Positions 4,017-56,500 of a stretch of 56,933 nucleotides of DNA are shown here, piece by piece. Each line of letters begins with the position of its first letter. Position 1 is the first letter of the stretch. The stretch is from Christensenella sp. UBA4247. Lineage in GTDB: Bacteria; Bacillota; Clostridia; Christensenellales; CAG-1252. Both the position numbers and the translations under genes were made by a program. The notes beneath the pieces were generated by a model, which saw only the letters and a program-made list of their open reading frames with translations, ran no database searches and had not been told where the DNA came from. The stretch spans positions 1 through 56,933 of the forward strand of contig DGWX01000062.1 of the NCBI GenBank assembly GCA_002395405.1. The letters run 5' to 3'.

Positions 4017-5763
4017 AAGACCTCCTGTATTTTGCTTCTTCTTCGGCAATCGCTTTCATATATTTTGACCTTTCTTCATCCGAGGTACTCAGCTTATATT
4101 TTTCATTTAATTCCGCGATCTTGCTTTTTTGATACTCTTTTTGAAGGAGTAACAAGCAATCTTCGTAAGCGGCTTTTTCCGAGCCTTCGTACCTTTTTGC
4201 GTCCAGGTTTATGATCTTATCCGCTTCCTCTTCCGTCGTAACGTGATAGAGCGTTCCGACGTCGGGAGGGGCGCTTTTCAAAGCGCATTCGTTTAAGTAA
4301 TCCGCCGCCGATCGAAGAGCGGGAGTGGGCATCAGATCGGCGTAATTTTCCCATTTTTCCAGTCCCATAATACATTCCCGTATGACGAAGCGGGCGGCCT
4401 CCACGTTTGCGTCCGATGCGCTAGTCGTTGCCGAAATGGCAACGGCGGACGCGTCGCCCGCGCTTTCTATCGCTTTTACTTCCGACGTTACGACCGATTT
4501 ATTGATCCCGGTCAGTTTGGAAACGAACTCGGCGTACACGTCTCTTTCCACACCGCTCGGCAGTTCGGACACGATCTTCGCCGCCTCTTTCGCGTAAGAC
4601 GCACGCCCGAAGGGAGAAGCCAGATCGTGTTTCTCTTTGAGCCTCGTAAGCTTATATTCCGTCAGCTCCACCGCGGCGTTTTTATATTTCAAGAACTCTT
4701 CTTTGCCCGCTCTTTTGATGACCTCGTCAGGGTCTTCGCCGTTCGGAAGCGAGATAACGCGTACTTTAAGTCCGTGATTCTTTAAGATCTCCAAGCCGCG
4801 GAGGGTTGCGTTTTGCCCCGCCGCGTCGCCGTCGTAACAAATATATATGTCTTCCACGTAACGCTTCGCAAGTTTTGCCTGCTCTTCCGTTAACGACGTT
4901 CCCATACTCGCAACGACGTTTTCGACTCCCGCCTGAACGAGCGCGAGGGTATCCATATATCCTTCCACCATAATAAGGTCGGAAACCTTTTCTCTTTGGC
5001 GAAGCTTTTTGATCATATTCAACCCGTACAAGTTTCTGTTTTTCTGAAACAGGACCGTGTTATCCGTGTTTTTATATTTCGCGAAATCGGTTTTCCCGAG
5101 AACCCGTCCTCCGAAGGCGACTACCTTTCCGAACGCGTCGATAATAGGGAAAACGAGTCGGTTCGCCATCGCGTCAAAGAACTTCCCGTCTCTTTCCTGT
5201 ATGACTCCCGCTTTCAGCATCTCCTGACGGGAATATCCGAGCGCTTTCAAATCCTCGATCAAAGAGGTATAACCATCCGAATAGCCGAGTCCGAATTTTC
5301 GAACGGAAGACTCAAAGATCCCGCGCTTTGAAATATATTCGACCGCTCTTTCCGCGGAAGGTTTTTTCAAGTTCGCGTGATAGATCCTTGCGGTATCGCG
5401 CGTAAGGGCGAAGAGCCTTTCTTTTTGTTTTTTGAAGGCTTCGTCTTCCGCGTTTATGCGTTTCGGAACTTCGAGATGCGCCCTTTCGGCGAGATGGCGA
5501 ACGGCTTCCATAAAGGTCATATTCTCCTCTTCCATAATAAAGGAGATAACGTCGCCCCCTTTTCCGCAGCCGAAGCACTTATAAAAGCCTTGCTCGCGAT
5601 TAACGGAGAAAGACGGCGTCTTTTCGTGATGAAACGGGCAATTTCCCCAATAGTTCGAGCCTTTTTTTTGCAGTCCCGGAACATAGGAAGAGACGACGTC
5701 CACGATGTCCGAACGCCCTTTCAGCTCTTCTATAAAATTTCCGTCCACACCCCGAATTTCCAT
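4003..5763 (-). CDS. dnaG: DNA primase DnaG
   Basis: Zinc-finger motif [40 protein letters not shown] region with [11 protein letters not shown] and [10 protein letters not shown]. The start was set to the ATG at 5761..5763, which forms a TGATG overlap with the dgt stop and follows a GGAGA RBS. The longer track start (5847) would lie inside dgt. Confidence 0.95.
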
Positions 5764-6758
5764 CAACTTCTCCAATCGTTCGGAATAAACAGCCTCTCGT
5801 ACGTCGCCACGGCGTAACGATCGGTCATACTCGCGAGATAATCGCAAACGGAAACGTCCTTTCCGTCCGTTTGAGACATCGTACGGTAGGGTTCGGGCAC
5901 CTCGTCAAAATGCTCGAAGTAATAATAATACAAGGTTTCAAGCAGCTTTTTCGCTTTCGCTTCCTCCCCTTTCGCCGCGTGATACGCGTACACGTTTTCG
6001 TTCATAAAGGAGTACAGACGGTTCAGCGCGGTTTGCACGTCAGGCGAAAGCGCGACTTCGGGCTTATCGTAAGAATAATTCACCATATCGAGAACGAGCG
6101 TGTTGACCCTCTGGCTCTTGGTCGAGCCCAAAACTTCCACCGCCTCTTTCGGGATCCGATCTTCCGTTATAACGCCCGCCATGATCGCGTCGTCTATATC
6201 GTGATTGATATAAGCGATCCTGTCGGAATAACTGACGACTCTGCCTTCCAACGTCGCGGGGTGCAGGGCGAGCTTATGGTTCTCGATCCCGTCTCTTACT
6301 TCCCAAGTAAGATTCAGCCCTTTCCCGTCGTTTTCAAGTTTCTCAACGACGCGCCTGCTTTGCTCGTTATGCCGAAAAGGTCTTCCGAGGATCTTCGAAA
6401 AAACGTCTTCGCCGGCGTGTCCGAAAGGAGTATGTCCCACGTCGTGCCCGAGCGCGATGGCTTCGGTCAAATCGGGATTCAAACAAAGCCCCGTGGCGAT
6501 CGTACGCGCGATCTGACAAACTTCGAGCGTATGCGTAAGGCGCGTTCTGTAATGGTCGCCTTCGGGCGAGATAAAAACCTGCGTTTTATGTTTCAGGCGG
6601 CGGAAAGCCTTACTGTGAATGATCCTGTCGCGGTCGCGCTGAAATTCCGTTCGAAGCGGACAGGGCGGGATCGGGATCTCGCGCCCTTTGGAACTCGAAG
6701 AAGGCGTTGCGTATTTGGATAAAAATAATGCTTCGATTTCGAGATATTTTTCTTTCAT
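5763..6758 (-). CDS. dgt: dGTP/dNTP triphosphohydrolase-like HD-domain protein
   Basis: 331-aa ORF with an ATG at 6756..6758 after AAGGAGGAGG. Motifs FQRDRDRIIHSKAFRRLKHKTQVF, DHYRTRLTHTLEV and ALGHDVGHTPFGHAGE match the Dgt/HD phosphohydrolase family. Confidence 0.85.
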   Translation of the reverse strand: MKEKYLEIEALFLSKYATPSSSSKGREIPIPPCPLRTEFQRDRDRIIHSKAFRRLKHKTQVFISPEGDHYRTRLTHTLEVCQIARTIATGLCLNPDLTEAIALGHDVGHTPFGHAGEDVFSKILGRPFRHNEQSRRVVEKLENDGKGLNLTWEVRDGIENHKLALHPATLEGRVVSYSDRIAYINHDIDDAIMAGVITEDRIPKEAVEVLGSTKSQRVNTLVLDMVNYSYDKPEVALSPDVQTALNRLYSFMNENVYAYHAAKGEEAKAKKLLETLYYYYFEHFDEVPEPYRTMSQTDGKDVSVCDYLASMTDRYAVATYERLFIPNDWRS

Positions 6759-7736: not shown

Positions 7737-10700
7737 TTATTGCTCTTCCTTTTCTTCGCCGTCAAGGGAATCGGCGATGTTTTCGGGATCTTCCGCCGAA
7801 TTTTGCGCTTCGGACGGCGCTTCGGACGGCTCTTCCGCCTGCCCTTCGCCCGCGCTTTCGCCTTCGGAAACGGTTTCTCCCGTCTCTTCGGGTTCAGCCT
7901 TCGTTTCTTCTTCCGCGCCCTTTTCGCTCTCTTTCTCCGATTCGTCCTTTTCCCCTTTCTTTTTATTCTTTTTGGGCTTTTTGGGTTTCGGAGAGAGTTT
8001 TCTCTTTTTTCTTGCCTTGGGGATCAAGATGATCGCGACCACCGTTCCCGCCGCAAGAAGGAGAACGGCGCCTCCGTAGATCACGATCTTTCCGATCGTG
8101 GTTTTAATGAAAGACTTTTGACGGATCTCGAGTTTTGCGTTCGACACACCTTCTTTCGAGATATTTCCCTTAAACGCCGCGCCCGTATCGGTGGAAGTAT
8201 CGAAGAGGGATTCGCCGGAGTAGGCGTTTACAACGTCGATCTTCACGTTCGAATAATGATAGCTGCCGAGCGTTTCGCCCTCCGTTCTGTCTCCCGTAAT
8301 CGAAACGACGAAGGTTCCGTCCGCAAGGTCGAAGTAATTCTTGATCTCCTTGAAATCGTCGTAAGGATCTTCCGCGATCAAAACGTACGAAATGCCGGGG
8401 TCCACTTCGCCTATCACCTTTTCGGAGGGAACAACGCGAACGATAATGGACACGGGCGCGACCGTCACGCTCGCGGTAAAGGTTGCCTTAACGTTATTAT
8501 TCGCAGAGATCAAACCAAGCTCGTCGATGGTCTTTTTGCCGTCGGAAGGCACGAGCTTCGAAAGCTTGTTATAGGAGATTTTAAGCGCGGACGCGATCGC
8601 GTCGGAGGCTTCTTTGTCGCTGCTGCCCGCAGGAACGTTTATGAAAGCGCCTCCTTTTTCGATCGTAAAGCGCAGGATCGCCTTGTTATCTCCGTAATAG
8701 ATCGTATTAAAGAATTCGAGATCTCCTCTTTCGATAGACGCCGAAGTAAACGAGCCTTGATCGTCATAATATCCGACTTCCGCTTTGATGCTGACCGAAG
8801 CGGGATTGATGATAAAGTTACCCGAAACGACCTGAATGAAATAGTTGTTAACGAGGCTTTCGTCTCCCGTCTTCGTTGCTTGCAAGGCAAACGTTCCGTT
8901 GATCTTATAGCTGCCGACCGTAACCGCGTTTTGGACGTCGTATCCGGTGGACACGACCTTGATCTCGCTCTTATCCTTTTCGAGCAGTCCTTCCGTTTTG
9001 AAACTGACGAGGGATTCTCTGAAATCGCTGACGCCGTTATACGTTTTGGTGAAGTCGGAGATCGTTACGGTCAGATACTTCTTGGTAACGATGACCATTC
9101 GTTGTCCGCTTTGCATCGTTACGCCCGAAATACATTTGATCGCTTCGTCCGATACGAGTTCCGCGCTGAACACTGCGTCATATTCGCCTACGTTCAATAT
9201 CGTTTCGCTGTCAAATCCGACGATGGCTCTTACGCCGACATCCGAAAGCGTCGCGTCTTTCTTTTCCGTTCCGAACATCGCAAAGTAAAGATCGGAAACG
9301 GTAATGCTACCGTCGCCCACGATGGTTGAGTACTTGATCGAGCTGACGGGAGTTCCGTAATTGACCGTCGTTTTTCCGGGTTTCAGGCGAATGGCGACTT
9401 TCTTGATCTCGTAATAATATCCGCCCTCTTTAACGGATAGGATCTCGTAACGATCGCTGATATCCTCGCCGTTCGCGTCCGTAACGCCATAGCGAAGAGC
9501 GTATCGACCGACGCTCTCTCCTTCTTCTCTCGAAAGAACGAGTTTATGCGATCTTTCCACGAAGGAATTGCCCTGAGAAAGCGAAGCGTAAATGGTTTCG
9601 TTCCTCTTTCCGAAGAACTTGACGTTCCTATCTTCATCCGCGACGACGTACAGTTTTTTCGGAGTAACACGCAAAACATTCTCCGCTTTGAGGATCGCCT
9701 TGGCGCTGCCGCCCTCGATCTCGTAACCGTCCGACGCCGATACGACGTAATTCTTATTGCGATCGGAGAAGAGGCATACGAGGTCGTAACGTTCTTCGGA
9801 AGGCAAAAGCGTTCCGCCTGCGTTATAAACGATGGAATCGAAGTACAGTTCGTCTCCTTCTCTCATCCCCTTATGCGAGCAACCGCTACTGCATTCCGTT
9901 CCGTCGCAAACGTGATATTTCGGGCGGAAGGAAGAAGAGCCGTATTCGATCTCGTCGAGATCGAAGAAGATCTTAACTTCGGTAGGACGAACGATGTAAT
10001 ACGCTTCTTTACCCGTCATGACAACGTTATAGTTCGGAAGCGCGAGGTTGTCGCCCACGATTATGCGATACGCTCCCGCGTCAAATTCATTCGATCTTTC
10101 GCGCGTCATCAAGGTGGAAGCGACCGCTTCGTAGGCGGCTCTGTCTTTTTCGAGAAGTCCGCTCTTTACGGTCGGATAGAATACGGCGGCTCCTTCGAAT
10201 TGCGCGAGATAATCGACTTCGATAGAGGAAACTTCAAGTTCCAGGGTCGCGCGCTCGATATTCGCGCGGATCAAACCTTCCTGCGCGGAAGAAATGGATC
10301 CGCCGTCAAAGACATAATCGAGATAGGCGAATTGATTCGCGCCGCTTTCGTCAAATTCGGGATCGTAAACGAGTTTTGCGTCTCCGCTGACATATACGAG
10401 CTTTCCTTGTTCGGCGTTTGCGTCCTTAAACGAGAAAACAATTCCCGAAACGGATACGAACGTTTCGTCGTTTCCTTTGAAGCCGTCAATGATCATACTG
10501 CCGGGGAGAAGTTCCGCGCGGGTCGTTCCGTCGTACACTTTATCCTTGATCGCCAAGCTCTTAAAGGTCAACTCGGCGGGAAGGATTTCAAGTCCCGAGA
10601 ACGCGTCGCAAAGCTGTCTTGAACCCGCGTGTACGCGATAGGAAATCAGGTAGTTACCCGCATGATACGGCAGTCCGCCTACGAGCGGCGGAGTCGCCCC

Positions 10701-29500: not shown

Positions 29501-32500
29501 TTGCTCCATTCTACCGCGGGCAACGTCATCGCACTGAGGTAGCTGTTTTTATCCATCGCCACCACGACGTTTTCGGGGAGACCCGCCGCGCCGAGGAGCG
29601 TATTGTAAAGGAAGCCTTCTTCCGCGACGGCAGAAAGGGCGACCGCGCGCTCCACGCGGGCGTCGAGGATCACCCTCTGATAACCGCCTTCTGCGTTTCC
29701 GACGAGAAGTCCGAGCTTGGTATATGCCGCGCCTTGATAACCGTAATCGATCGCAACGCTCGACCAAAGAACTTTCAAAGTCGCGCTGTCGCCTCCCTCG
29801 AAGAGAACGGTCAACATTTCGTCCGGTTTCTTCGTTAAGCCACCGATCTCACCGTACGTTTTTACGGTAAATCCTTCTTCCATAACGTTTACGCCGTCGA
29901 TCAAAAGGCCTTTGATCGTTCTGTCCTTGACCCTCAGTTTGATTCTTTGCGCCTGATAGCCGCCCGTTCTGTCGCCCAGGTAAGCGGTGATCGTATATAA
30001 GCCGCCCTGGAAGAATCCGATCGCGTCGTTTCCTTCCGCTTTGACGGCGTTCGAGATGTTCGCGGTCAATTTGAGTTCGCCCGAAGTGTTATCGGTAAAG
30101 GTAACGCTCGTAGATTGCGGCAAGGTGCTGTAATCGTAAGGATCGATCTCGAATTCTTCGACCGAAACCGATTGCACCGTCTTATCGAGGACCCTTACTT
30201 TAATGCGTCCGGGTTGATAGCCGCAAGAAGAATTTCCGATATACACGAGCACGTCTTCTCTGTAACTTCCGCGATAATTGTAATCGATAGACGCTTTGCT
30301 CCAATCGAGACGGAAGGTAGAACGGATCGCGTTACACGAGCAACCGCAATCGCAATCGGAAGTAAGAACGCCCGTGTTCGGATCGACCGTTCCGCAGTAG
30401 CCGCGCTCCACGCAAGAAGCGCAGGTACAGCCGCAAACGTCGGGCGTAAGCGCGTAATACTTGCCCGTTTCGAAGTTATAACCGACCGCGCCGCCGACGT
30501 TTACCGTCAACGTTTGCGGGAGAGAGATCTGGTAGGGATTGATCTCAATGACGACGTCCTCCGGAACCGTCAAACTGCGGAACACGGTCAAAACGTCAAA
30601 GCTGTACGTTCTGTCTCCCGCTTTTTCGCTTCCGAGCGAGAAGGAGGCTTTCACGGGAACGTTATTGCCGTTCGCGTCTTTACGATATTCGAGATTCCAA
30701 TTCGAGATCATCTTGATCATCGGAGCGGAAGACGTAAGCGCGTTTACGCCCGTTCTCTCTCTGAATTCGAGATACACGTTGTTCGGGAAAGCGGAATCGA
30801 GATACGCGTCGTTTACGATCGCGGAGATCAAATCGCCCTTTTGTCCCGTTTGTACGTCGTAAGAATAGATGGCGGGAACGTACCTTCCGCTTCCCACGGA
30901 TACCGTCTTTAACACGCGGTTTTTAACGACGACCATAAATTCAACGTTGATATAGCCCGTGCGCGCGTTGCCGATCTTCAAGATCGCACCGTGCGTATCC
31001 GGATTGTATCCGCCGTACACTCCGCCTTCGAGATCGATCTTAACGTTGCGCATATCCCATACCGCGTTGATATAGGTATCCGTTCCGTCGTTAAACGCAA
31101 GGCGAACGGTCGAAGGCAGATCGTACGAGTTCTCGTAAGGATCGATCTCGATGCGGTAACGCTCGTAATCGATTTCGAGGTCGTCCGTAACGTTCGCTTT
31201 ATCTTTGGACACTTTTACGTTATCGATATAAAGCGCGGTCGCGAGTCTCTTATAGATCTTAACGGGAACGGTAATGATCTGATAACCGCCGATCGCGTCG
31301 CCGATGCGCGCGTCCGCCGTAAAGTCTTGATCGTCCCAATCGGGGAAGTCGATCGAGTTGATATCGGTACGGTAATTCTCGTTGATCCAAGAAACGTTCA
31401 TCGACCTTTCCGTTCCGTCCTTAAAGGTAACGGTAACGACGGAGGCGAGATCGTTGTCCGAATAGACGTCCAATTTTTGCTCCGTAATAGAAGAACCTAC
31501 GATCTCGCGATTGAGAATGCGAACTTTAATATCGGTATAAGTTTGATAACCGCACACGCTGTTACCCGCGCGGATCGCCACGGGGAACTCCTCGAAGAGA
31601 TCCGAACCGGAAGCGCTCTTGAAGCCTCTGTATCCGTTGATCACGTTACTGATATCCCAAATGACGTCCACAACGCCCTTCTCGCCGTTCGAGAAGGTAA
31701 CGTTTACGCGCTCGTAATAATTCGCTTCGAGCCTCGGATCCACGCCGCCATAGGGATCGAAGATAATGGTGTTTTCTTCGTTCAGCTCAACCGACGCGAT
31801 CTCGCGGCATGCAACCGTTACGGGGACGGAATAGGTTTGATAGCCGCCGTACTCGTTTCCGAATTTAACGGTAACGAAGCAGCTTCCGCCTTTGTAGTTC
31901 CAGATCTTACCGATTTCGGTAATATCCCAAATCAAATTGCTGAAAGTATGCGTCGAGTCGTCCTTAAAGACGGCGATCGCGCTCTTAACGTAAGGCGAAT
32001 GAACGGTTGCGCCCGAAGCGTCCGTATAATCGTCCATCGAGAGCGGGTTGATCGACTCGTCGTACGGATCAAAGGAAAGCGCCTCGATCTGCAAGTTCTT
32101 AATGATCTTGCTCTTTACGACGACGGTAAACGGAACGAGCTGATAGCCCGCGCTGTCCGTTCCGACGCGCGCGTAAGCGGTAAAGGTTCCGCCCTTGTAG
32201 CTTTGATCCACTTCCGAAAGATCCCAAGTCAACGGATATTGACCGCTGTTTTGAGACGAGAACACGACCGTAGCTTTGTTGCCGCCCGAGGTGTTTTCCG
32301 GATACCACTTCGCGTCCACCGCATTCTCCTCGTAAGGATCGAATTCGTATTTCGCGCGAACCGAGGTCAGGTCGATCGCGGTGACCGATCTGTCTTCGAT
32401 CGTAATGGGAAGGCGGATCGTTTGATAGCCGCCGAGTTCGTTTCCGACCTTCAAGCTGACGTATTGCACGCCCGCGTTGTATTTAACGGAAACGGAAGAC

Positions 32501-35500: not shown

Positions 35501-38500
35501 CCTTCTTGGATATTAAAGAGTCCGAGGAATCTTTCAAGCATTCCGGCGTCCAGATAGAGAGAAGCTTCGTAGGGCGTTTGCGGTTTCGAACCCGCGGCAA
35601 GCGCTTTCAAAGTCAAAGTCAAATTCGCGTTATCGATCGTGTACTCCTTATCCGATTCGGCGGAAGAAGATTCTTCTCCATCTTCCTCGCTTTCCTCTTC
35701 GTCTTCCGTAACGTTCGTAGCTTCACGGATCAACTTTTCGATGATCTCTCCGATGGATTCGACTTTGAGAACGTCTTTCATGATCGTCAATCCGCCTTCT
35801 TTAAGATCGGCGTCCAAAACTTTCGAAAGAGTTTGTTCGAGGTTGATACCGCTCGCGCGCAGTTTTACGAATCCGAGATCGGACAAGTCGAGATAGAGAC
35901 TGCCGCCGTCCTCGTCCAAAGTCGAGCCGTCGTAATAAATGCCCAACAATGTCAGGTTGTTATAACCGTCCGAGAAGTTGACCTTGATTTTGAAACAGGT
36001 CTTCGAGAAGTTCTTAAAGTTCAGCGCAAGGTCGATATTGATATTAAACGACCAAGTGGACGCGGCGTTTCTCTTAACCGTGACCGAACCTTTCTCCGAA
36101 CCGAGAATGCATTCCACGAGCGCTTCGAAGAACTCGAAGGTCTGATTGCGATAGGCGTCAAGCGATAAGCCCGAACCCGTATTCGCGGCAACGGCGAAAT
36201 CGAGAGTCGCGTTCAATTTGAAGTTCAAAACGTCAAGCTGCATGATGTCGGAATAGTTTTCGAGCTGCTTGTATCCGTCGAAGTTCGTATTTCTCGCGCC
36301 GACGTAGTAGGTAAAGGTCCCGCCCGATTTTCCGGCATAGGTATCGGACGCGTTTTTGGAATCGGGGAGGTAAATATGCGTGCTGACGGAAGAATCATAT
36401 CTCTGATTGATTCCGATCCTATTCGTCGGACTTCCCACGCGCAATTTCGCCCCGTTTACTTTGGCGGTAACGCCGACCCAGTTCGATCCCGTCGTTCCGA
36501 AATCGTCTCCCGAAACTTTTTTATTCAGATAACCGTTCAGCGTAATCGACCAACCGGAAGGCGAAGCGCTGTCGTTATTGTCATAATAGAGTTCCGCCTT
36601 AAAGGTTTTCTTATAATCTTCGATCGGGCCGAGGATCGAACTCGGAATATTTACGCCGAGCATATCGATCAAAAGCATCAACATCGATACGTTGAGTCCC
36701 ACGCCGATCTGCGAATTGCTCATCGACAAAATAAAGCGCGCCGCCGTTCCGTAATCCGTCTTCATATCCGATCCGGTGTTATTGATCAAATCGATGTAGT
36801 TTTGCAAAACGGAGGGGATCGCCTCTTCGTCTTCCGTATCGATTCCGAGGAGGAGCCAAAGCGCGTTTTTGAGTTTTACGCCGTCGCTCGCAGCAGCGGC
36901 CTCCGCGGGTGCCTCGGCTGCCGCCGCCTCCGCCGCGGAATCAGACGACTTCGTGTAATCGTTCCAGAAACTGATGTCGAACACGTCCGCCAAAACGCCC
37001 GAAAGATCCAGCCCCGTAACTTTGAGTCCGCTGAGACCGAGCATCGGCAATGCCGCGTAAGCCGTTTCGTTCGCGTTCAAATAATACAAACCGATGAGAA
37101 GCGTCGTTTGATTCGTGGACGGGTTCACTTGCGCGATTTCGAGAAGAAGCTCGGTTTTGCTGCTGTCAGCCAAATCCAAGAACATTTCGAGGCTGATCCT
37201 GAGATTCAATCTCGTGGTTTCTTCGCCGTTATCCACGATGAGGTTCGCCGTATCGTTTTCGGTCAGTCCGAGCGACTTTTCAAACAGCGATTTCATCGCG
37301 ATCGTAACCGTTTCCACGCCGCCCGAGATCGCAAGATCGATCGAGGTGGAGAGATGGATCTCCATTTCGTCGATCGTCGGGTATTTCAGATAACCGGAAA
37401 GCTTAGACGCAAAGTTATGCGCGTTATTGAAGGAAGTATAGCTTGCGCCGGCGCTGCTGACGACCGATTCCGCCTTAAAGCGAGTTAAAGTAATACCCAC
37501 GCTGTAATCGTCGTTCTCGGAAGCGAGTTTGATATACGTATCGCGCATTCCTTGCGCCGTGGTCGCTTTGAGTTCCGCTTTGATGTAAGCAAAGTTATCG
37601 TTGCAAAGATAGGTTTCGTATCCCATCATCAACAGCAAGTTATTAAACACGTTCGGGTTAAGAACGATCATACTCATCTTGTTTCCGAGCTGGATCGCGG
37701 AAACGAGGCTGTCGATATACGGGGTATATTGCGCCACGCTCTTCGGCAACGAAGTGGATCCGGAGCCTCCGGAAGGAAGAACGGCTTCGTCCTTGCAATC
37801 GCATTCGCATTCTTTATTTGCGCAAAGCAGCACGCCGTTTTCGCCTTTACAGCTACCGTTATCGATACATTCCTGATCGGTACAGCCGCAGGAAAGCATG
37901 CAATGACGGCAAGTACATTGCTCTCTTTCCGACTGACCGGCAAAATCGCAGTACTCGTCAAACACGCAGTAATGGTTCGGGCTTCTCTGGCAGTAAACGC
38001 TCGTACAAACGTAGCAAAGCAGATAACCGCCCTCGCTCATACAGCCGCCGTGATCGATACACGCTTGGTTCGTACAGCCGCATTCGAGATACGTGCAATC
38101 GCAACCGCAGTTTTCTCCGTCGCAGATACGAACGCCGTCTTTATAACAGCCGCCGTTCAAAAGGCAAGATTGATCGGTACAACCGCATTTCAATTTGCAG
38201 TGCGAGCAAGTGCAATCCGTTCCCGCGCAACGGACGACTCTCTTACCGAACGCGTAAGTAATACAGCTTCCCGCTTCCACGCAATCGGGGTGCGAGCAGC
38301 CGCAGGGAAGAACGATCGCGCCGAGCGAAGAATAGGTATCCACCGAGCGCGCTCTTTCAAACGCGTTTACGATGGGCGACACGATATCCGCTTCGATACG
38401 GTAACTTCCGAGCTCGAACGCGTCGAGGTTGATATAGAGATAGCTCGTAACGTTCTCGCCCTTTCCTTCGTAATAAACGTAAGCGCACTTTGCGCCCGCC

Positions 38501-41500: not shown

Positions 41501-44500
41501 AGAACGCCTTTTACGTCGATCGATCCAAGCGAGATATTGCCCGCAATCTTGTAAGCGAACGTCGCCCTTCCGTCCGTAAAGGCAAGATTGAAATCCACCT
41601 GTTCTCCGAGGATAGCGGAGATCGTATTTCCGAGGGCGATCACCGTTTTACTCGTATCGAAGCTCATTTCTCCCGAGAAAGCAAAGTTAACGTAGCTGTC
41701 TTCCGTCAGCTCGCTGTAAGTGGCGAGAGAACCTACGAGGTCGGTCGGTACTTCCAAAAGATTTTTATTGAGATCGATCTTGATATTGTCTATCGTCATG
41801 CGGATATACGAAGGCTTATCGGCGTCCGCGTCGTTACGGAAGTCCACTTCGGCGTTGATCGAAATATCGCTGAGCGCGTCCACTTTGAAACCGACGCGCA
41901 ACGTTCCGATGCTATCGATCCCGCTGAGTTCCATATCATAGCCGAGCGCAATCAAAATATTCGTAATGAGCGAAGGCTTGAATTCCGCCTGTACGCCCGC
42001 CGCTTCGGATATCGTTATGCTCGTAATATGTTTCGCAATGCCGAAAATAATATCCTCGGTGCTGTTAAACATTTCTTCCGCAGTCTCTTTATCGTGGCAA
42101 CTGCCGTCGCCGCAGTTTTTACAAGTCGAGAAGCAGCTTCCTCTCTCCAAGCAAACGGGATCGGTACAGCCGCAAGAAAGAGGAACGACGAGCGTCGTAG
42201 TAAAGTGACAGCTTCCGTCGCAGTTTGTCGGGCAAGTCGGAGTACAGCTTCCGCGTACGAGACATTCTTCTTCCGCGCAACCGCAGATCAACGCTCCGCT
42301 TTCCGCCGCGGAAGACGCGTGATGATCGCAGGCGCAGTTTGCTTCGCAGCGCGTCCCGTCGCACACGCCCGCTTTTACGCAAGAGGCGCAGTTACACTCG
42401 CATTCGAACGCGGCGCACTTGCAACCGCAATCTTCTCCGTCGCAGATGCGAACGCCGTACTCGTCGTAACAGCTGCCGTTATCCACACACAAAACGTTCG
42501 TACAGCCGCAAGGCAGCGGATCCACGGTATAAGAGAGGAAATCCTCGATGGTTACGCCGCCGAACCACGTTCCCTTGATACCGAGCGCGGGGATCTTGGC
42601 GTAGAGTTTCGGGGCTTCGTCTTCCCCGTCGTAGAACAAGAAGGCAAGGACGGAAGACGCGGTCGGATTCGCTCCTTTCGTTACGGTCAGCATGATCTGC
42701 GTCCTTTCGAGGTTGTTCATATCGAGAGAGATCTCGACGGCAACGTTCAAAAGGGTATTCTCCGTCCAAGTCGTTGCGTCCACAACGATCTGCATCAGGG
42801 TATCGATGCCGGGGAACAAACCGTTCAGCATCGGCCCCAGCTCGACCTCGGTGTTCTCGGGATGGATCTCGATATGCATCTCCGCTTTCGCCGTGATCTT
42901 CTGCAAGCGATCCATCGGTTGATAGGTCGTAAAGTCGGCGGCAACGGAAGGATCCCTGACGTCTCTGACGTCCATCATTTGCTTTCCGCTTCTGATCGTC
43001 AGCCCGCCGAATCCGATCCCGATGGTCGAATAGTTCCCCGTGTACGAACCGTTCAAAGATTGTTCGATGGCGATATTCGCGCGGAGAGCGAGATTGGCAA
43101 GGAAGTCGTGGCTCGTTCCGCTGTACATTTCGTACTCGAAGGTCGCGACGGGAGAGGTGCCGGAGGTATAGATCTTAACCGTCCAAGCATAATCGGGAAG
43201 CGCGGAAAGTTTTTCGTTTCCGTCGCTGAACGTTATGGCGCCGTTGGAGATCGTCATATAAGAAGCGATCTCGCTTCCGGTAAGAGTCGTCGTTCCGCTC
43301 TTTCCGATAAGCTCAACTTTCGTTACGTTCTGCGCCGTGATCCCGCTGACCTGAACGGTCTTCTCGCGCGTAATATAGTTAAGCGCAAAATCCACCGCGA
43401 TCTTCGGAACCTCGATATCGTCTATGGTATTGCCCGAGATCAGGTAGAATACCGAAGCGAGGAACGTGTCGGACGAACGGAAGGAAAGCCCTGCCGGCGT
43501 AAAGGTAACGTTATCAAAGATACCCGAAATCGAGTTGCTGTAATAGGTACGGCAAGCGCCGTTACAGTATTCGCAGTTCATCGGGCAAGTTCCGGCTTTG
43601 ATGTGATTGGGATTGGTGCAGTAGCAAGCGAGGAGCCCGGTATGGCACTTACATTCGTTCAAATAAACGCAGCTTGCGCCCGCGATCTTATACGTTAAAG
43701 TACGGAACGGCGAAGACGACCCGGTATAGATTTTGACCGTCCAAGCATAATCGTCCATCGCGAGCAGATAATCGTTCGCGTCGTTAAACGCGATCGTTCC
43801 GTCCACGATCGTCATGTATTTTTTCCAATCTCCGTTTGTCAAAGCAGTATTCGTTCCGCTATGCATTCCTACGAATTCCACCTTCGTTACGGCGTCTCTT
43901 ACGAGTCCGCCCACGGAGAACAAGTCGTTTTTATCGCAATAGCAGATCGGCGTAACTTTGCCGTCTATGAGCTTAAAGGTCTTGATACATTGACCGTGCA
44001 AAATACATTCGGGGTTGCGACAATAGCAAGCAAGGCGATACACGAGCGAGCAAGTGCATTTTTCCTCTTCGCAGCCCGCGCGATGGATCGCTTCGATACG
44101 AACGATCTTGGGAAGCGAGGTCGCCTCGTCCGAAACGAGGGTCGCGCGCTCCGCGTTCGTGAGATCGGATCTTTCCGCTCCCTTTTCACCCGCAACGTAT
44201 CTATAATAGGTATCGTTTTCTTTATCATAATAAACGGCGCCCGTTTCTCCCGCTACTTGATACACGTTTCTGTAACCGGCAACGCAGCCCTTTTCCAAAC
44301 ATTCCGCATTGTTGCATTCGCATTTTTCCGGCGCGTGGCAACTGCAGCATTCCTCACCGTAATCCTTGCAGTAAACGCCGAATTCACCGCACGACCCTAT
44401 GGAAACGCAATACGGATTGGTACAGCCGCAAGGCAAAACGCAATGTTCGCAAGAGCATTTTTCATCGCAAAGTTTTCTGCCCGACGCGTCGTAACAGCCA

Positions 44501-47500
44501 CCGTTCAGTTCACACTTCGCGCAAGTGCAACCGTCTTCCAGTTTTGTGCAATCGCAACCGCAGGTTATACCGTCGCAAGCGCGAATACCGTTTACATAAC
44601 ATCCGCCCCTTGCCTGACAGGCGGGATCGGAACAACCGCAAGTCAAAGACGTGCAAGAACAATCACAATCGCCCTCGCAGATCTTTTTGCCGTTTGAATC
44701 GTAACAGCTTCCGTTTTGAACGCATTCCTCGCAATCGCAGCCGCAACCTTTGACCACGCAGCACGTGCAATCGCAACCCTCTTCGCAGTGCTTGATCGAA
44801 CCGACGCAAGAACCGTTCAAATAGCATTCCATATTGTTACAGCCGCAAGAGAGGCGGGTGCAACCGCAATCGCAATCGCAGCGTTTTACGCCGTTTTCAT
44901 CGTAGCAGCTGCCCATCGCCACGCATACGGGATGGATACAAGTACAGCCGGGAACGACGCAATGCGAGCAATTGCAGTTCGAATCGCAAAGGCGAGTCAA
45001 TACTCCGTTTACCGTTCCGTAGCAACCGCCGTTTTTGACGCATTCCGCGCAATCGCAGCCGCAATCGAGATCCGCCGTCGTTTCGCTTTCTCCGCTTTCA
45101 TTCGATCCGCCGAGCAGTTTTCCGATATCCACACCCGTAACTTTTACGCCGTAAAGCCCGAGAAGAGGCGCGTCGATATAGATCGCCTGATCCAGCCCCA
45201 CGAGATAGCCGCGGATAAAGAGATTTTCCACACCGCGCGACGTCATATATAGGTCGATCAAAAGTTCGCTTCTTTCGAATCTTTGAACGTTTAAGTTACC
45301 CGAGATATGCAAGCGGAAAGCGGCGTTTATAACTTCGCTTTTCAGCGCGAAGCCTTCGCCGAATATATACATAAAGATATCGTCCAAATTCAGCCTTTGT
45401 TCGATAAATTCCGCGCCGAGATACAATTCCGTATCCACGTAAACGTATTCGAGAACGAGGGGCGATTCTTCCGCATAATCCAAAAGCGTCGTAAATTCGG
45501 TTACGTTTTGCGTAACTTCGGGGCGGATATTGACTTCGGTGAATCCGAAGCGTTTGATCCTAAACTCGCCCGAAATAAAGCCGTCTTGCTCTTCGTTCTC
45601 GAAATCGAGATCGAAGGTCATGAGGTTTTTACGGATCGCGAGTTTAACGCCCGTAAAGTCGATCGGAAGTTCGATTTCGAGCGCGGACGCGAATTCGGAA
45701 AGCAAAACGTCGAGGAAGTTATTGCTTACGTTTACGATCGCGCCCTTCTCGCCGTAGGAAGGATTGGAACCGTCCGTGATCACGATGCCGTCGATGATCC
45801 TCGCAACGAGGGTCGCATAGCGAGCGGCGGCAGAGGAAGCGAGGCCGGAACTTTCCGCCGCCGAAACTTCCGAGGTGGAAGCCGAGGGAAGCAGATCGGA
45901 AATAAACGAGGTGTCCACGTTCTTGATCAAAACTTTTTGAACGTCGAACCAAGGCAAATAGAGATAGATCTCTCCTTGGAGCATATCCATATACGCTTGA
46001 ACGACGTAATTATCGTTCCAAACGAGTTCGATCAATATTTCGCTCTTTTTGATCTCCTCCACACAGATCTTCATTTCCACGTTGAGCTTAAAGTCGCCGC
46101 GCAAACCTTGGAAAGTAACGGGAATGTTTACGTTGTCCGCAACGGTCTTGATGAGTCCGCCGAAATCGTAAACGCCGTCCGGGAAGGAGTACGATACGTC
46201 GCCCGTCAGCTTAAAGTGCAAGTAGCTGTAATCGTCCGTCGTGTTGTAAAGGGACTTATCGAATCCAAGGTCCTTTTGAACGAGGGCAACGCCGTAATCG
46301 TGCAGTTTCAAAGAAAGTTCGTTATTCGGAATATTCGCTCCGTTTCTCAGCTCCGTTTCCAGCCCGATCTCCTGATGAATGAGATCGGCGTACAATTCGA
46401 GATATTCCATATCGCCGAGGCTCAAAGTACTTCCGAGCATATAATCGGTAAAACGCTCGACCACGTCGCCCGCGAAGTGAACCACGATACGACCCGCCGA
46501 AGTCAGACTTATGCTTTCGATAACGGAAAGCGCTACGTCCAAAACGTCGCTCGAGCCTTCTTCCTCATTTTCGCCTTCCTCTTCCGCCGCGGCGATCGCA
46601 TCCGTACCGATCGCGTTATAAATCGCGCTCGAAATGCGTTCGGAGAGTCCGTTTATCGTTTCGGTGAGTTCCTTTCCGAGAAGTTTGGAGAGATCGAAAT
46701 CGAAGGTCATATTGAACGTATCGTCGATCCAGGGGAGATAGGCAACGAGGTCGTATTCTCCTCCGTAATACAAAACGATTTGATCTTCCCCTTCGCTCGT
46801 AATTCTGAGAAGGATCTCGGAGCGGTTTACGTCTTTCAAATGAACGTTGCCCGCAACGGTCAGCGTAATATCGCCTTGAATATCGCCGAGCAAGGAAACG
46901 GGTAAACGCTCGCCGCCGAAGAGTTCGGAGAGGAATCCGTCCATATAATACACACCCGCTTCCGCCGAGTTCTTAAAGAGCGCTTTAAGATCGAGGCTAA
47001 ACGATACATGCAGATATTCGAGATCGTTCAAATATCCGTAATCGGACGTATCTTCGATCAAACCGTTGATCAAACCACCGAGAACGATCTCCGGCTTTTC
47101 CACGGAAAGCGCGACCGAAGTATATGCGGGATCGCCTACGCCATCTACCCCTTTGAACGTTAACGTCGCGCTGACGCCGTCTTCCTTATGCAAGCGCGCG
47201 TTAAAGCTCATATCGAGCGTGGCGTCTATATCAAGGAGCGAAAGAGCTTTCGCAAACATCGCGCTCTCCATCTTAATAAGGAGTCCGCGCGCGTTATAAA
47301 TCAAACTGAGCGTTTCGTCGAGGGAAGACGAGCAATAGCTGCAAGAGCAACCGTCGTATCGATCTCCGAGCGCGTTTTTACGGCAAGGATGCGAATAATC
47401 GAAGGAACCTCCGTGCGATACGCATTCGGGATTCGTACAGCCGCAGAGAAGCCCGCTTTCCGCCGCCGCGCTTCCGCCGTTCGGAATAAGATCCGCGAGG

Positions 47501-50500: not shown

Positions 50501-53500
50501 TCGTAAACGGTATCGCCTTCTCTCGTAACGAGAAGATCGGAGATCGTGATCGTGGCTTGCAGTTTCAATCCGGAAACCATCTTACCGATCGCGTCTTTCA
50601 AAGCGCTTCCTTTCAGAGAAGCGAGATTCAAGCCTTCGGCTTTAAGCCCGCTTGCGGCGAGTTCGACTTTTACGGAATAATGCGCGTGATTTTGCGCGTC
50701 GGAGGTAAGAAGGAATTCCAGCGCGCCGAGATAACCCCCTTCGGTCGAAGCAACGTGCTCGCCGATGATCTCGCCCTGCTCGTTCATCGTGGCGCCCGTT
50801 TTCGCTTCCACGCTCATTTCGGCGGCGATATGGAACGCGCCCGCTTCGCCGAGAGCGCTCGCACCGGCGGTAATACCTTCGTTTCCTATGATCTTATCCT
50901 TCCATTCCGTTCTTTCCGTAAGGGAAGAATCGAAGAAAAGCGAAGCGCGATGCACCGCGACTTCGAGGAAGGAATTCTCGTTCATTTGTAACACGACGCT
51001 AAGTCCGTCGGAAGAAAGAGTCGCTTTCAGCCCGTCGGTCGGAGGCACGAGCGCGGAAAGTCTGTAACTGCCGAGTCGCATCAACGACAGCACCAAATCA
51101 AGCGCTCCGCCGTCCGCGCTGACAACGAGACCGTCCTCTTCCGAGAACACGACTTGCAGGATCTTCGCCAGCAATCCGCTCGTTTCTTCAAGGGTTCCGT
51201 TTCCTTCGCTCTCCGCCGCGGAAGGCTGCATCCTTTGGAGATAAGGCGCGATAAGATCGAGAACGGCGCCGTGCAATCCGAGTCCGGAAATGCGAACGGC
51301 GTTCTCCGCGCCGTAAGCGGAACCGCTGATATAGAGCGCTTCCTCCTTTCCGAATTGCGTTTCTTCCGCCGAATTGTAATAGAGAGAGATCAAGCTCGAC
51401 GTTCTGCCGTAAAGTTCGCCGTCACCCGTTTTCAAATAGAAGGAAAGCCAAAGTTCGGCGTCGGGTTCGAGAAGCCCGTTCAAAGTTACGTTCGCGGCGA
51501 GTTCCAGCCCGAGCGCCATCGTAACGAGGTCTTCCGCCGTGTTGTTTCCGATTTGTACTTTCAGCGCTTCGCCTTCGATATTTTCGCTTACGAAATTTGT
51601 TATGGTCTTCGCGTACTCGCCGTCCATAGAGAAGGTAACGTCCGCCGCAACGGAAAATCCGACGGAAAGCTCTCGCCAATCGCGGAATCGGGAGAGATCG
51701 CCGAACAGATCGCGCGACTTGAATCCGACCGCGAGATTTCCGATCCCGATGCCGAGATCGAGGTGGAGATCGTCTCCGTCCTTCGCGAGAATGCCGATAT
51801 CAACGGCAACGTCTTCCAAATTTACGTTTGCGGACACCACGAATTCGGGCAAGATCAATTTCAGTCCGAGGAGCGACGTAACGACGGCTAAACTGTTCGC
51901 CTTGGTCACCACACCGACTACGCCCACCGTTCCGTCCAAATACACATAATCCACAACGTCGTTTATGATTTCGAGAACGCTCTTGCGCGCGTGAACGCGG
52001 CAGTCGCAACCTTCGTTCAAAACTTGCTCGCCGTTTTCCTCGTGGAAGCAACTCTGAAGCGTCTTACACGCGGGGTTCATACAGCCGCATTCAAGATCGG
52101 GATAATGGCAAGTGCAGGTGCAAGAAGAAGAACAGGTCGCGGTAGCGGCGCTCTTTCCGCACGTTCCGTTTTGCAAGCATTCGTCGCAATTACAGCCGCA
52201 AGAAAGAACGGGTTCGCTTGCCTCCGCGGAAGAGATCGCCCCGCGGATATATTCCATTAACGAAGTTCCCGTGATCTTGATTTCCGGAAGTCCGATCAAT
52301 CCGAGCGAAACGTAAGCGGTATCGGTTTCGCTGTCATAGGCAACGTAAGCGTATTCCGAGCCGTCTCCGCCTTTTACAGACAGCGCGAATTGCAGGAATT
52401 CAAAGGAGGCGAGATCCGCGTTTACGTCGAGACGGATCGTCAAAGGCGCGTTCAAAGCGGCGCCCACGTTTCCATCCGCGCCGAGATATAAAGATAACTC
52501 GCTCGCAATGTCGCCGATCAGATCGTCGAGTTTCAGCATATCCAAAACGCTGCGGATCGAATCCGTCGCGTCATAACGGAATGTGCCCGTTTCGAGATCC
52601 AAAGTAACGGTAATTCCCGCCGAAACGCGGCTGAGATCAAGGTCGGTTCCCCTGCCGAGGAACACATAGTCTTCTTTGGAAAGCCCGTTTCCGTACATAT
52701 AAGAGGAAAGCGAAAGGCTCTTATCCAGTCCGAGAACAATGCCGTCGATAGACGCGTTTACGAAAGCCCCGGGGAGAACCGCGCCGAGGTTTACGCTAAC
52801 GCCGCCGTCAAGCGTAATGCCCACTTTCACGCTTTCTATGAGCTTCTCGAAATCCAAAGATCCGACGTTCAGCTCCATTGCGGAAATAACGCCCGCGATG
52901 AGCGCGCCCGAAATCGAAACGCTGATCCCGTTTTGATCCAGCATCAACACGGCGAGTCTGCCGAGAGATTCCGCCGTCTCTTCCGCTTCGGACAAGGATT
53001 CGAATGCCGCGGCTACTTCGGAAAGGAAGAGAGCGTCTATATCCACTGCGTAAGAGATCGGTTCCACGCCGAGCCAAGGCGCTCTGAGATACGCCGTGCT
53101 CGAAGGTCCGTCGAAATAAAGGGCAAGCATCAACTCTCGCGTTCCGAGAATGCGATCGTCTTCAAAGAGCGCGAAGTAGATCTCCGCGGTCGGAACGACG
53201 GCGGAAACGGTCGAGAGATCCGAGAAATCCATTTCCGTCAGATCCACGTTCGCTTTCAAGTCGAAGGACAGATCCCAGCGCGTCATACGGCGAACGTCAA
53301 TGCCGAACTTAGCGCCGTCCACGAACTGCCTAACGAGCGCGGCGAGCTTTTCGTTTCCTTGCTCGAAAGACACAGTCAGCGAGCCGCTGACTTCCGCGGA
53401 AACCTTTCCGAACGATCCGAAATTCAATTCGCCGTACTGCGATCGATCAAGACCGAGATCGCGATGGGCAAATTGAACTCCGAGGTTTCCGACCGTCAGA

Positions 53501-56500
53501 TCCACGTAATTATTTTCGTCATAAGCGAGTTTTACGCCTACGTCGATTCCGTCGATAAAGTTTACGCGAAGAGACGGCGTCAGTCTCGGGAGCGAATCGC
53601 CGAGTCCGCCCACGCCGAGGATACTCATTACGCGCTTAAAGCTGTCTTGCATTAGCGTAACGCCGATGCCGCGCTTCGTAAGATCGATGCGATCGAAAAG
53701 CCCGATGACGCCGTCAAGCGCGTCCGCCTCTGCCGCGCTTTCCGAAACGCAGTGCGAACAGGTGCAACCGTAAGCGCAGCTCGATCCGTCGCAATAAGCG
53801 GCATTCAAACATTCTTCGCAGTTACAACCGCAAGAAAGATTGGATACTTTGATACGGAATTTCGGAACGTCCATTCCGTAAACGGCGCCGTCGCTTGCGA
53901 GAGTGGAAAGACCCTCCGCGTCCACGTACAAATACAATCCGTCGAAATAGACTCTGACGAGAAGATCGCCGTCTTTCAAAAGCTCTATGCGCGCGTTAAA
54001 ATGCAACCCGTCCGAAAGATCGAAATTCGAACTGACGCGCAAAACGAATCGGCCCGAGAAATCTTCTTTAACGTCGAAAGTCAGCGCTGTGTTCATCAAT
54101 ACTTCGCCGATGCTGTTCGGAACGATCCCTCCGAGCTCTTCCATAAAGTCGGTAAAATCGTACTGCATATCGGAGAAGGCGTAATCGAGATCCGCTTCGA
54201 ATTGAACGTAGATCGAATCGAGCGAAGTCGCGTCGCGGTATTCCCTGCCGGCGCTCTCATATACGCTTTGCGGAACGACCTCTCTTCTTGCGAGAGTTGC
54301 GGAAATATCGGATACTTTCATAGCCACGTATGGGTTTTTATATCCGAGCGCGCCTTCGGAGGTATCGAAAGCGATCTTCGCGCCGATCTCGAATCCGTCC
54401 ACGAGGCGAACGTAAACTTTGCTCGAAGAATCGAGATCCAAAACGGTATCGGTGTTCTTATCGTCCGTCAAAAGATCGATCAAAGTCGCGATAAAGCGAT
54501 CGGCGAGAAGAACGGAGATCTCGTCTCCGATATATACGCCGCCCATCATTCCGCCTACGATATCCAAGATTTGCTTACTCGAAAGCGCGCTCTCCGCCGC
54601 CGCGGGGATCGAGGGCGTTTCTCTTTCCGCTCCGATTGCGGTTCGGAAGAAATCTTCGAGCTTGATCTTATACATAAACTTCGGAAGCGTCGTTCCGTCC
54701 GCGCTGATAGAAAGCCCCGTTGCGTCCACAAACACGGCGCTTTCGCCCGCCGCGTATTCTCCGTAATAAAGCGCGATCACAAGGTCGCCCAAAGCGCCCG
54801 ACGCGTCTTGCTTATAGATCTTTACGGCAAGCTCGACGTTCGCAAGGTTCAGTTCGACGTTCGCGCCTCCGAAGAAGTTGGACATTTTGATAGGATCAAA
54901 AGCGATATTCGCGTCCACTTGAATATCCAGCCCGCCCGAGATCGGCTCTTTTACTCCGAGCACGCAGGCAAGTTCGGCAACGATATTGCCGAGCGCGTCG
55001 CCGAGATTGACTTCTTTTAAGCTGCCCGTATCGCCCGAAAGGGATAAGAGGGCGGAAAGGGAAATATTCGAAAATTCTTCGAGCGAAGAATAACCCGCCG
55101 AAGAAAAATCGTCTTTATCCACGATAAATTTCGGTCTGTATCCGAAAGAAAGTTGATCCAAAGAAACGCGAATAAACGTATCTTCGGTTAGTTTAACGTC
55201 GGCGTTCAGGAACAAGCCGAACCCGGAGATCAATCCGAGTTCCACTCTGATCGAGCGGATCGCCACGTCCACGCTGGACAAGGTCTCGTTTACTCCGTTT
55301 ACGATACTTGCGAACAAGTCGAATTTATCTTGCGCGGACTTGATGTCGGCGGCATAATCGGCGATCAATTGCTCTTTTGCGCGAAGAAGGATCTCTTTTC
55401 CCTCTTTCAACCTGTCGAGCTTGTTGTTCTCTTCGGTGATCCTGCCTTCCAAGCGAACGATCTCGCCTATTCCGATACTGCCCGACGATCTACCGTCCGC
55501 AAGTTGGCGTTCGAGAGCGGCGATCTCGGCTTCTTTTTCCTCGATCTCCTTCTGTTTCGCTTCTATATCCTTCTCCACGGCGGCGACCGACGTGTCGTTC
55601 GCTTCAGCGTCGATGGCTTTTTTAAGATCGTCCGACGCGTCGCGAGCCAAGCCTTCCACAACGGACAAAATAACCGAACGATCCATTGTTACCGCAACGG
55701 ACTTACGCCCGCCCGGACGGCGTTCCATCGTGTTCAAAACGCGAACGATAATATCGAACACGTCAAGCTTCGCGTAACTTCTGTCTTCTCCCGCCGCCGC
55801 CACGTAAGCGTACGTTCCGGTTTGCGTAATGTTCGAAAGCGCCTCGTCATAATCGTCGCCCTCTTCTCCGAAAGTTTCCACGATAAGCGAACGGATCGCT
55901 TCGCCTTCCGCGGTCGCTTCGCTCGCCGTTCCGAGAAGCGATGCGAGCGTTTCGGTGACAAAGGAATTCAAAACGTCCGCAACGTTCAATCCTTCGTACA
56001 CGAATTTCGGGAGATTCGCGTAAGAGAAATCCACGTACAGGGAATTTTTGGTCCCTATATAATAAACCGTTCCGAGAAGGACGTTTCCTTTCGTCGTAAC
56101 TTCATAAAGGTAAAGCTCTATGTAGTTCTTTTCGTTATAATTCCAGCTGATCTCGGCGTTTACGTCCACATACAAGCCGATCGTTCCTTCTCCGAGCGTC
56201 AACGTACGCTCGCCGAACGATCCGAGCGACGAAAGCCCGAAGAACTCGGTCAGGACGCCGCCGATCAAATTGTCGATCGTTACCTGCTTTTCGCTTCCGT
56301 TTTCAAGATCGACTTTGAAAGAAACTTCGAAGTTCGTAAGCCCGAACTTGCGGTAATCGGTAAACTCGGGGAACACGATGGCTTCCACCTGACGGGAATC
56401 GGAACCGTAATACTCGTTGTCCATAATGAAGTCCACGGCGAAGGTTTCCGCTCCGTAACCGAGATCCACGTCGATATTCGTCAGCTTTCCGTCCGAAACG

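Follow-up and report, generated by a model that had tools for sequence, protein, structure and literature searches.

A 56,933-nucleotide stretch of contig DGWX01000062.1 from Christensenella sp. UBA4247 (hereafter the window, taken at its full length) encodes on its minus strand a giant protein, p1, that carries short cysteine-rich modules both singly and in tandem arrays. The largest array lies at 44284-45063, where an earlier note made from the DNA letters had described 7.5 consecutive units with 63 Cys in 260 amino acids (aa). Minus-strand translation gives exactly this. The 260 aa correspond to residues 3955-4214 of p1, contain 63 Cys (24.2%) and 5 His, and are organized as seven full units and a 13-aa half unit. 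The runs CDCDCGC, CDCTCC and CDCSC reported in the earlier note are all present. At the protein-wide Cys content of 2%, the probability of finding at least 63 Cys in 260 aa is ~4e-48.

Read on the plus strand, the same interval gives an Ala/Thr/Phe-rich translation interrupted by a stop, which is an antisense shadow of the array. The plus-strand open reading frames (ORFs) 43861-44697 and 44716-45252, which lie over the array, were rejected as genes and are likewise antisense shadows; their Ala/Thr richness arises because GCA and ACA are the reverse complements of TGC and TGT. In orthologs, the frame that corresponds to the minus-strand ORF is open over 21 kb, versus ~250-360 stops in each of the other two forward frames. 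No in-frame stop lies upstream of the listed GTG of p1, so its true N-terminus is outside the window. Residue 148 of the ortholog P0006 aligns to residue 1 of p1, indicating that ~147 N-terminal residues are missing.

The strict Cys skeleton proposed in the earlier note is exact in four units of the array, compared with a mean of 0.013 per shuffle, and none of 5,000 composition-preserving shuffles of the array itself reached four. The other units depart from the skeleton by one Cys or by spacing: unit 2 lacks the last Cys, unit 6 has C-x-C-x2-C and unit 7 has CC. The core of the module can be written as C-G-C-x4-C-[VIL]-x2-G-x-C-x5-11-C-x2-4-C-x-C-x1-2-[C/H], mostly with L-x in front, within a size of ~33-39 residues. 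Pairwise identity among the units is 30-55% at the aa level, and Tandem Repeats Finder (TRF) detected no DNA-level tandem repeat in the array, only a 6-bp microrepeat. We conclude from this that the units are old and diverged, and we rejected a recent DNA tandem duplication. The microrepeat, (GCAATC)x3.5 on the plus strand at window positions 44860-44880, corresponds to the codons for CDCDC. It is the site of an extra Cys (C4018, Ser in three orthologs) that may have arisen by slippage.

A hidden Markov model (HMM) of the unit identified 20 copies in p1 with confidence and 2-3 further ones that are degenerate. This total of ~22 is close to the ~23 copies counted in the earlier note. The copies are found at aa 1032, 1576, 1613, 3161, 3955-4214, 4300, 4434, 4806-4950, 6208-6385 and 8831 (Table 1), and the same HMM found none in p2, the adjoining giant ORF of 6,243 aa. 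Almost all Cys of p1 belong to the modules: 187 of 204 lie within 855 module residues and 17 in the other 9,274 residues (0.18%).

Table 1. Giant ORFs and Cys modules in the window. Residue numbers refer to p1; P0006, P0009, P0016 and L002 are orthologs of p1.
Feature	Residues (aa)	Window position	Strand	Remarks
Giant ORF p1	at least 10,129 aa	26536..56925	-	Host of all Cys modules; N-terminus cut by the window edge
Second giant ORF p2	6,243 aa	7737..26468	-	Directly downstream of p1; no Cys modules
Isolated single module	1032-1063	53737..53832	-	9 Cys + 1 His; tail swaps Cys/His between orthologs
Double module	1576-1648	51982..52200	-	15 Cys in the window, P0009, P0016 and P0006; second unit deleted in L002 (9 Cys)
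Isolated single module	3161-3201	47323..47445	-	7 Cys in all lineages; fourth Cys lost, conserved H-P-C
Main tandem array	3955-4214	44284..45063	-	63 Cys + 5 His; 7 full units + 1 half unit
Unit 1	3955-3993	44947..45063	-	CGCDCAEC...CNCSHC; 9 Cys + 1 His
Unit 2	3994-4026	44848..44946	-	8 Cys in the window; 7 in 3/3 orthologs (C4018 -> Ser)
Unit 3	4027-4060	44746..44847	-	9 Cys + conserved K-H-C
Unit 4	4061-4095	44641..44745	-	9 Cys; position-5 Cys -> Asn in ortholog P0016
Unit 5	4096-4131	44533..44640	-	8 Cys
Unit 6	4132-4165	44431..44532	-	8 Cys + His (CSCEHC); whole unit missing from ortholog L002
Unit 7	4166-4201	44323..44430	-	8 Cys + His (CCSCH)
Half unit, CECNNAECLEKGC	4202-4214	44284..44322	-	N-terminal four-Cys half alone
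Variant module (…ACYCRNPEC…)	4285-4330	43936..44073	-	
Variant module, CYCTNPNHIKAGTC	4419-4458	43552..43671	-	His at the third-Cys column, conserved in P0009 and P0016
Four-unit array	4806-4950	42076..42510	-	Interrupted by SAAES linker; units 3 and 4 have 7 Cys + conserved C-H
Four-unit array	6208-6385	37771..38304	-	36 Cys
Single module	8831-8870	30316..30435	-	9 Cys; C-terminal region, flanking context unlike other modules

Orthologs of p1 allowed us to follow the modules across lineages. Scanning genomes at one per GTDB species revealed a single locus, in Christensenella sp. UBA3217 (L001), with 68% identity over the array, and a metagenome scan added one further locus (L002) with 49%. 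Both are colinear with p1 over ~7,000 aa, at 52.5% and 41% identity respectively, and have their Cys clusters at equal places. The L001 array aligns with that of the window over 260 aa without a gap. It shares 62 of the 63 Cys, 21 of them despite a synonymous codon change; the proportion of synonymous differences (pS) is 0.70 and dN/dS is ~0.12. The array is under strong purifying selection. Cys is the best-conserved residue over the ~7,000 aligned aa, with 97% kept in L001 versus ~52% overall identity, and orthologs at 41-53% overall identity retain 97-99% of their Cys. In L002 (41%), nearly all Cys losses are deletions of whole units. The window is itself contained in an ENA metagenome scaffold of 99 kb. 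Conservation within the modules extends to non-Cys positions (Gly, Tyr and hydrophobic residues). The earlier note had held that non-conserved Cys positions in orthologs would speak against its reading, and these comparisons find the opposite.

We searched 1.84 billion representative proteins exhaustively with the unit HMM and recovered six proteins at E<=1e-3, all of them fragments of the same giant protein family as p1. As far as this search can see, the module is thus very rare and confined to one protein family. Among the seven clusters looked up, three are named ("hypothetical protein, partial", from metagenome-assembled genomes (MAGs) of Clostridia/Clostridiales) and four are unnamed ENA records. 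A word-indexed protein search with the array or with a 65-unit alignment returned no match, though family members are in the collection. Because the exhaustive HMM search finds members in that same collection, the word-indexed negatives say nothing about rarity, and for Cys-rich, low-complexity queries such negatives are not readable as absence. With aa 2700-3700 of p1 as the query, the word-indexed search found a single partial MAG protein. Our literature search on giant or cysteine-rich proteins of Christensenella found nothing relevant.

Scans of the arrays against Pfam-A (three arrays), NCBIfam and PADLOC returned no family at E<=10. A PDB sequence search with the modules gave only non-significant matches, including a 16-residue cyclotide match (E = 0.085), and nothing for the array. 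These results agree with the earlier note, which could not assign the repeat to any named Cys-rich family. Judged by sequence comparison, the module is a previously undescribed domain family, absent from Pfam, NCBIfam and PDB.

The closest known spacing is that of the Tesmin/TSO1 CXC domain. In MSL2 and LIN54, nine Cys of this domain wrap around three Zn (PMC3447885, PMC4974476). The modules resemble CXC and pre-SET domains as Cys-rich mini-domains of ~35-50 aa that start with C-x-C-x4-C and a hydrophobic residue and end with C-x2-4-C-x-C-x1-2-C. His is able to replace a ligand Cys in CXC domains and modules alike, and both consist of one short helix and otherwise loops (PMC4974476 for CXC; a low-confidence model for the modules). 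Aligned by hhalign to the second LIN54 CXC repeat (approximate sequence), the unit profile ran collinear for 32 columns and placed 8 Cys in register, at a probability of 0.9% and E = 0.06. However, neither PF03638 (TCR/CXC) in Pfam-A nor any CXC sequence in the PDB matched at E<=10. The published consensus of the CXC superfamily, CX[C/H]X2-13CX4-7CXCX5-60CX2-4CX1-2CX2-15CXN, comprises nine ligands and a signature Asn (PMC3447885). Used as a regular expression, it had no in-register match in any module and one out-of-register match in the array, versus a shuffle mean of 1.0. Neither the C-x-C pair in the centre nor the C-x-N signature of CXC domains exists in the modules, whose ligand variants are easier to fit to two sites of four ligands each than to a bridged Zn3 cluster. 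CXC domains bind DNA in eukaryotic nuclei, whereas the modules are bacterial, extracellular and repeated in tandem up to 7.5 copies. We rejected membership in the CXC/Zn3Cys9 group because of the hhalign probability and because no unit fits the consensus in register.

Metallothioneins, bacterial SmtA/BmtA among them, share with the modules a very high density of Cys, C-x-C motifs, His as an occasional ligand and a lack of constraint on Cys parity. They are small, free-standing, cytosolic metal-buffering proteins, whereas the modules keep a fixed register, with conserved Gly, Tyr and hydrophobic residues, within an exported fibre protein of at least 10,129 aa. An hhalign comparison with SmtA (approximate sequence) produced no alignment, and there was no metallothionein match in Pfam. 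We rejected a metallothionein relationship because the modules have no profile similarity to SmtA. The metallothionein-type cluster suggested in the earlier note was therefore not upheld in that specific form, as the Zn3Cys9 consensus does not fit either and the ligand variants are better accommodated by two four-ligand sites.

Other Cys-rich families share single features with the modules. EGF and laminin-EGF domains also form extracellular head-to-tail arrays in which small modules of 6-8 Cys act as spacers, with C-x-C and Gly before Cys. They differ in that the modules have no Pfam match, contain 6-10 Cys (often an odd number), exchange Cys for His and occur in an anaerobic bacterial host. 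The Myxococcus Cys-rich repeat (TIGR02232) and DUF4215 are likewise bacterial, exported tandem Cys repeats of large surface proteins, but their spacing is unlike that of the modules and neither matched at E<=10 in NCBIfam or Pfam. The cyclotides circulin A and B have the local motif L-x-C-x-C-x-N-x-x-C-x-x-N-G in common with the modules; as these are cyclic cystine-knot peptides of plants with 6 Cys, the match is almost certainly a coincidence. SCIFF and ranthipeptide precursors are short, with a leader peptide and an adjacent radical-SAM maturase. The modules are part of a giant exported protein, there is no maturase among the window genes or upstream of the ortholog, and NCBIfam gave no match.

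The earlier note had left open whether the Cys bind metal or form disulfides, and the sequence evidence leans to metal. Of 37 isolated clusters counted across six lineages, lying hundreds of residues from other Cys, 23 have an odd number of Cys. The single module of the 3161 type has 7 Cys in all four lineages that possess it, and in four of five lineages the 1032 type has 9. The 1576-type double contains 15 Cys except in L002, one of its five lineages, where a unit is missing and the count is 9. Such conserved odd counts make complete disulfide pairing impossible in these clusters. Single Cys also toggle between orthologs without a change of partner (for example, C<->N at position 5).

Cys and His interchange at conserved columns. 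The tail of the 1032-type module reads CTCSHC, CKCSCC, CKCSCH or CTCDCH depending on the lineage, and that of the unit at aa 4842 is CACDHH in p1 versus CTCSHC or CSCTHC in orthologs. In the module at aa 4434, His occupies the otherwise invariant third-Cys (C3) column (CYCTNPxHIxxGxC) and is kept in three lineages. Degenerate units can still offer eight ligands. The second unit of the 1576-1648 double (aa 1613) has 6 Cys and 2 His, conserved wherever the unit exists, and the module at aa 3161 has 7 Cys and a conserved H-P-C; the units at aa 4881 and 4918 have 7 Cys with a conserved C-H. At the end of the main array, a four-Cys N-terminal half unit stands alone. His makes up 2.8% of module residues versus 0.7% outside (Fisher p = 9e-7), and 74% of module His are conserved versus 33% outside (p = 0.002). 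Parity, Cys/His swaps and the enrichment and conservation of His together favour metal ligation over disulfides. By sequence, the modules have the four close ligands and the Cys<->His tolerance of generic structural zinc-finger-type sites (tetrahedral Cys4 or Cys3His).

The host protein p1 is built of large, highly diverged repeats that a blastp self-comparison at 1e-5 does not detect and that have no Pfam or PDB match. They end in "...YYxG...LY[VI][DN]xP...K[IV]xG", as at aa 296, 731, 997, 2849, 3125, 3653, 3915 and 6163. Six of the seven clusters begin 30-45 aa past the "...LY[VI][DN]xP...K[IV]xG" motif of a large repeat, ahead of a hydrophobic helix-like segment. Where an equivalent junction has no module, it consists of an acidic linker, in many cases one that includes the pentapeptide SAAES. 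A junction can hold anything from 1 to 7.5 units, a number in which orthologs are not alike, and P0004, a distant relative rich in AT, likewise has modules at this type of junction, both singly and in pairs. This placement and the variable unit number are the behaviour expected of an optional structural insert or spacer. The variant modules at aa 4285-4330 and 4419-4458 are embedded in a beta-rich region and not in a linker.

The pentapeptide, as SAAES or AAAES, is found at aa 775, 1902, 3153, 3688 and 4872 of p1 (aa 4872-4876 correspond to window positions 42310-42324) and also in orthologs. It is frequently located directly upstream of a Cys module and is a possible processing or modification site.

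The earlier note had placed the array in an exported protein of a probable anaerobe, and the relatives of p1 are consistent with both points. Ortholog N-termini (MTKNLHTKLLL...LVAFAC and ...LVACAC) are Sec-type signals with lipobox-like ends, which mark the host protein as Sec-exported and probably lipid-anchored. We found no twin-arginine motif in the ortholog signal sequences, which points to export via Sec as an unfolded chain, and on this ground we rejected an Fe-S cluster reading. On ortholog contig L005, the gene directly upstream of the giant gene (486-1328) encodes a protein of 280 aa that begins with a signal of lipoprotein-like type (…SIGAFAC) and matches nothing in Pfam; the corresponding region next to p1 falls outside the window. 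The only Pfam domains in the whole of p1 are Big_4 and Flg_new, near the C-terminus, and a PDB sequence search of p1 found an InlB B-repeat at the C-terminus and nothing else significant.

The host is a relative of the strictly anaerobic Christensenellaceae, and its nearest genome is that of Christensenella sp. UBA3217. Christensenella minuta is described as strictly anaerobic (PMC12692188), and obligate anaerobes are reported to tend toward exclusion of Cys from exported proteins (PMC12453122). The low Cys content of p1 outside the modules fits this tendency. Sec export of an unfolded chain, the strictly anaerobic clade and the exclusion of Cys by anaerobes all fit metal binding by the modules.

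We interpret the module as a new extracellular zinc-finger-like bead repeat that would stiffen or lengthen the linkers of a giant lipoprotein-type surface fibre in a Christensenellales anaerobe, a reading that we regard as the most likely one, at about even odds. The module would act as a structural bead that can be inserted into the linkers between the large repeats of a surface protein of >10,000 aa, with 7.5 beads placed head to tail in the main array. A p1-type protein would be exported unfolded, after which each unit would fold around two tetrahedral metal sites, most likely of Zn2+. The ligands would be C1, C2, C3 and C4 in the N-terminal half and C5, C6, C7 and C8 or His in the C-terminal half. 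Each metal-loaded unit would form a compact rigid bead, and tandem beads would form a stiff spacer rod, very roughly estimated at 15-20 nm for 7.5 units, that separates or projects the flanking large repeats. Rigidity would in this way be achieved without oxidative disulfide formation, which strict anaerobes largely lack.

Several observations weigh against this bead model. Metal binding, the identity of the metal and the two-site topology are read from ligand patterns in the sequence, and we infer the role as a rod or spacer from position only. In three orthologs, unit 2 has 7 Cys and no conserved His and thus falls short of eight ligands. The 9-10 Cys present in many other units are more than two sites would explain. 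The sum of Cys and His per cluster is not uniformly a multiple of 4, and we rejected a rule of eight Cys plus His in every unit because it is not universal. Structure prediction gave low confidence: AlphaFold2 models of a di-unit reached a mean pLDDT of 58.1 with 14 paralog rows and 59.6 with 34 paralog and ortholog rows (pTM 0.34-0.37). Foldseek returned no PDB match for either of the two models. In both runs, the low-confidence prediction for each unit is a single short helix spanning C3 and then a hairpin, a zinc-finger-like layout that in itself speaks for the bead.

A serious rival, although we consider it unlikely, is a disulfide-locked rod in which each knotted unit holds ~4 disulfides, as in EGF, laminin-EGF or knottin-like modules, and any odd Cys is free or paired with one in a neighbouring unit. 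A set of eight core Cys with C-x-C motifs in each unit is what one typically sees in extracellular modules rich in disulfides, and there is a weak local likeness to the cyclotide C-x-C-x4-C-x2-N-G loop (at the E of 0.085 given above). Three of four lineages have an even number of Cys in the whole array (62, 60 and 56), which inter-unit disulfides could accommodate, and some Clostridia have homologues of DsbA, VKOR or BdbD (PMC12453122); both points also count against the metal-bound bead. Disulfides are harder to reconcile with the conserved odd counts of 7, 9 and 15 in isolated modules (23 of 37 clusters being odd), with Cys<->His swaps that reach even the invariant C3 column, and with the unpaired gains and losses of single Cys between orthologs. 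Nor do they suit a strictly anaerobic clade and a protein that otherwise avoids Cys (PMC12453122, PMC12692188), and neither EGF, Laminin_EGF nor any other Pfam family matched. Alternatively, metal binding might be the function itself, with the modules acting as an extracellular, metallothionein-like sink or buffer for Zn, Cu, Cd or Fe. This is improbable. It would account for the very high thiol density (~187 Cys in 855 module residues), shares the Cys/His ligand signature and can draw on the collinearity with the Zn3Cys9 CXC domain (the hhalign comparison with the approximate LIN54 sequence, at its probability of 0.9%, puts 8 Cys in register). A sink would not explain why the modules sit so exactly at corresponding structural junctions of a giant, fibre-like protein, or why Gly, Tyr and hydrophobic residues are conserved as in a folded domain. 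Moreover, SmtA and the Pfam metallothioneins show no similarity, and the window genes include no metal-responsive regulator or transporter besides an unrelated ECF S-component.

Two further proposals concern the chemistry of the thiols. A reactive-thiol surface, serving as a redox or oxygen buffer or in adhesion to Cys-rich host mucins or partner cells by thiol-disulfide exchange, would suit an exported protein of a gut anaerobe with no constraint on Cys parity. It would also suit the adhesin-like Big_4 and Flg_new domains at the C-terminus of p1 and the adjoining adhesin-like giant gene. We hold it to be decidedly improbable, since fixed spacing and near-absolute conservation of the Cys columns point to a defined fold or ligand geometry, and the enrichment and swapping of His would be left unexplained. 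Least probable of all, and scarcely credible, is a substrate for post-translational modification by thioether or other crosslinks, such as those that radical-SAM enzymes introduce in SCIFF and ranthipeptides. Cys-rich repeats near Thr, Asp and Asn do resemble some cores of ribosomally synthesized and post-translationally modified peptides. However, the host is a Sec-exported protein of >10,000 aa and not a leader-peptide precursor, no radical-SAM maturase was found among the window genes, and upstream of the giant gene in the ortholog there is just the small lipoprotein-like ORF. The absence of an NCBIfam match also argues against such a substrate.

It is very doubtful, but conceivable, that the beads house metal-thiolate centres with redox activity in place of inert Zn, for instance Cu(I)-thiolate or rubredoxin-like Fe(Cys)4. 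They would then serve in an extracellular redox or electron relay on an H2-producing syntrophic gut anaerobe, with ~15 closely spaced centres in the 7.5-unit array. The long Cys-free stretches between modules speak against a relay, and a chain that leaves the cell unfolded through Sec is more likely to bind Zn, simply and spontaneously. If true, the relay would represent extracellular electron handling that is neither haem- nor flavin-based.

The two giant ORFs occupy ~49 kb of the window. The p2 protein is rich in Gly, Ser and Asn and has an N-terminal signal anchor and one YDG domain; its C-terminus consists of a transmembrane segment, then KARKKRK and a long tail of acidic character. Besides the giant ORFs, the window carries a housekeeping block of a kind typical for Bacillota, with genes for an ECF S-component, an HD hydrolase, dnaG, rpoD, trmK, NIF3 and a zinc-ribbon protein.

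If the zinc-finger-like bead is indeed stabilized by metal, p1 would be an unusual bacterial extracellular protein of tandem zinc-finger-like modules. It would also reveal a route by which strict anaerobes build rigid, cross-braced surface structures without oxidative disulfide chemistry. The new family serves as a marker for surface proteins of >10,000 aa, a class that has hardly been sampled, in Christensenellales-like gut Clostridia, and a family profile would improve the annotation of MAG fragments now recorded as "hypothetical protein, partial". The Christensenellales-like clade is of interest for host health and for its physical association with methanogens.

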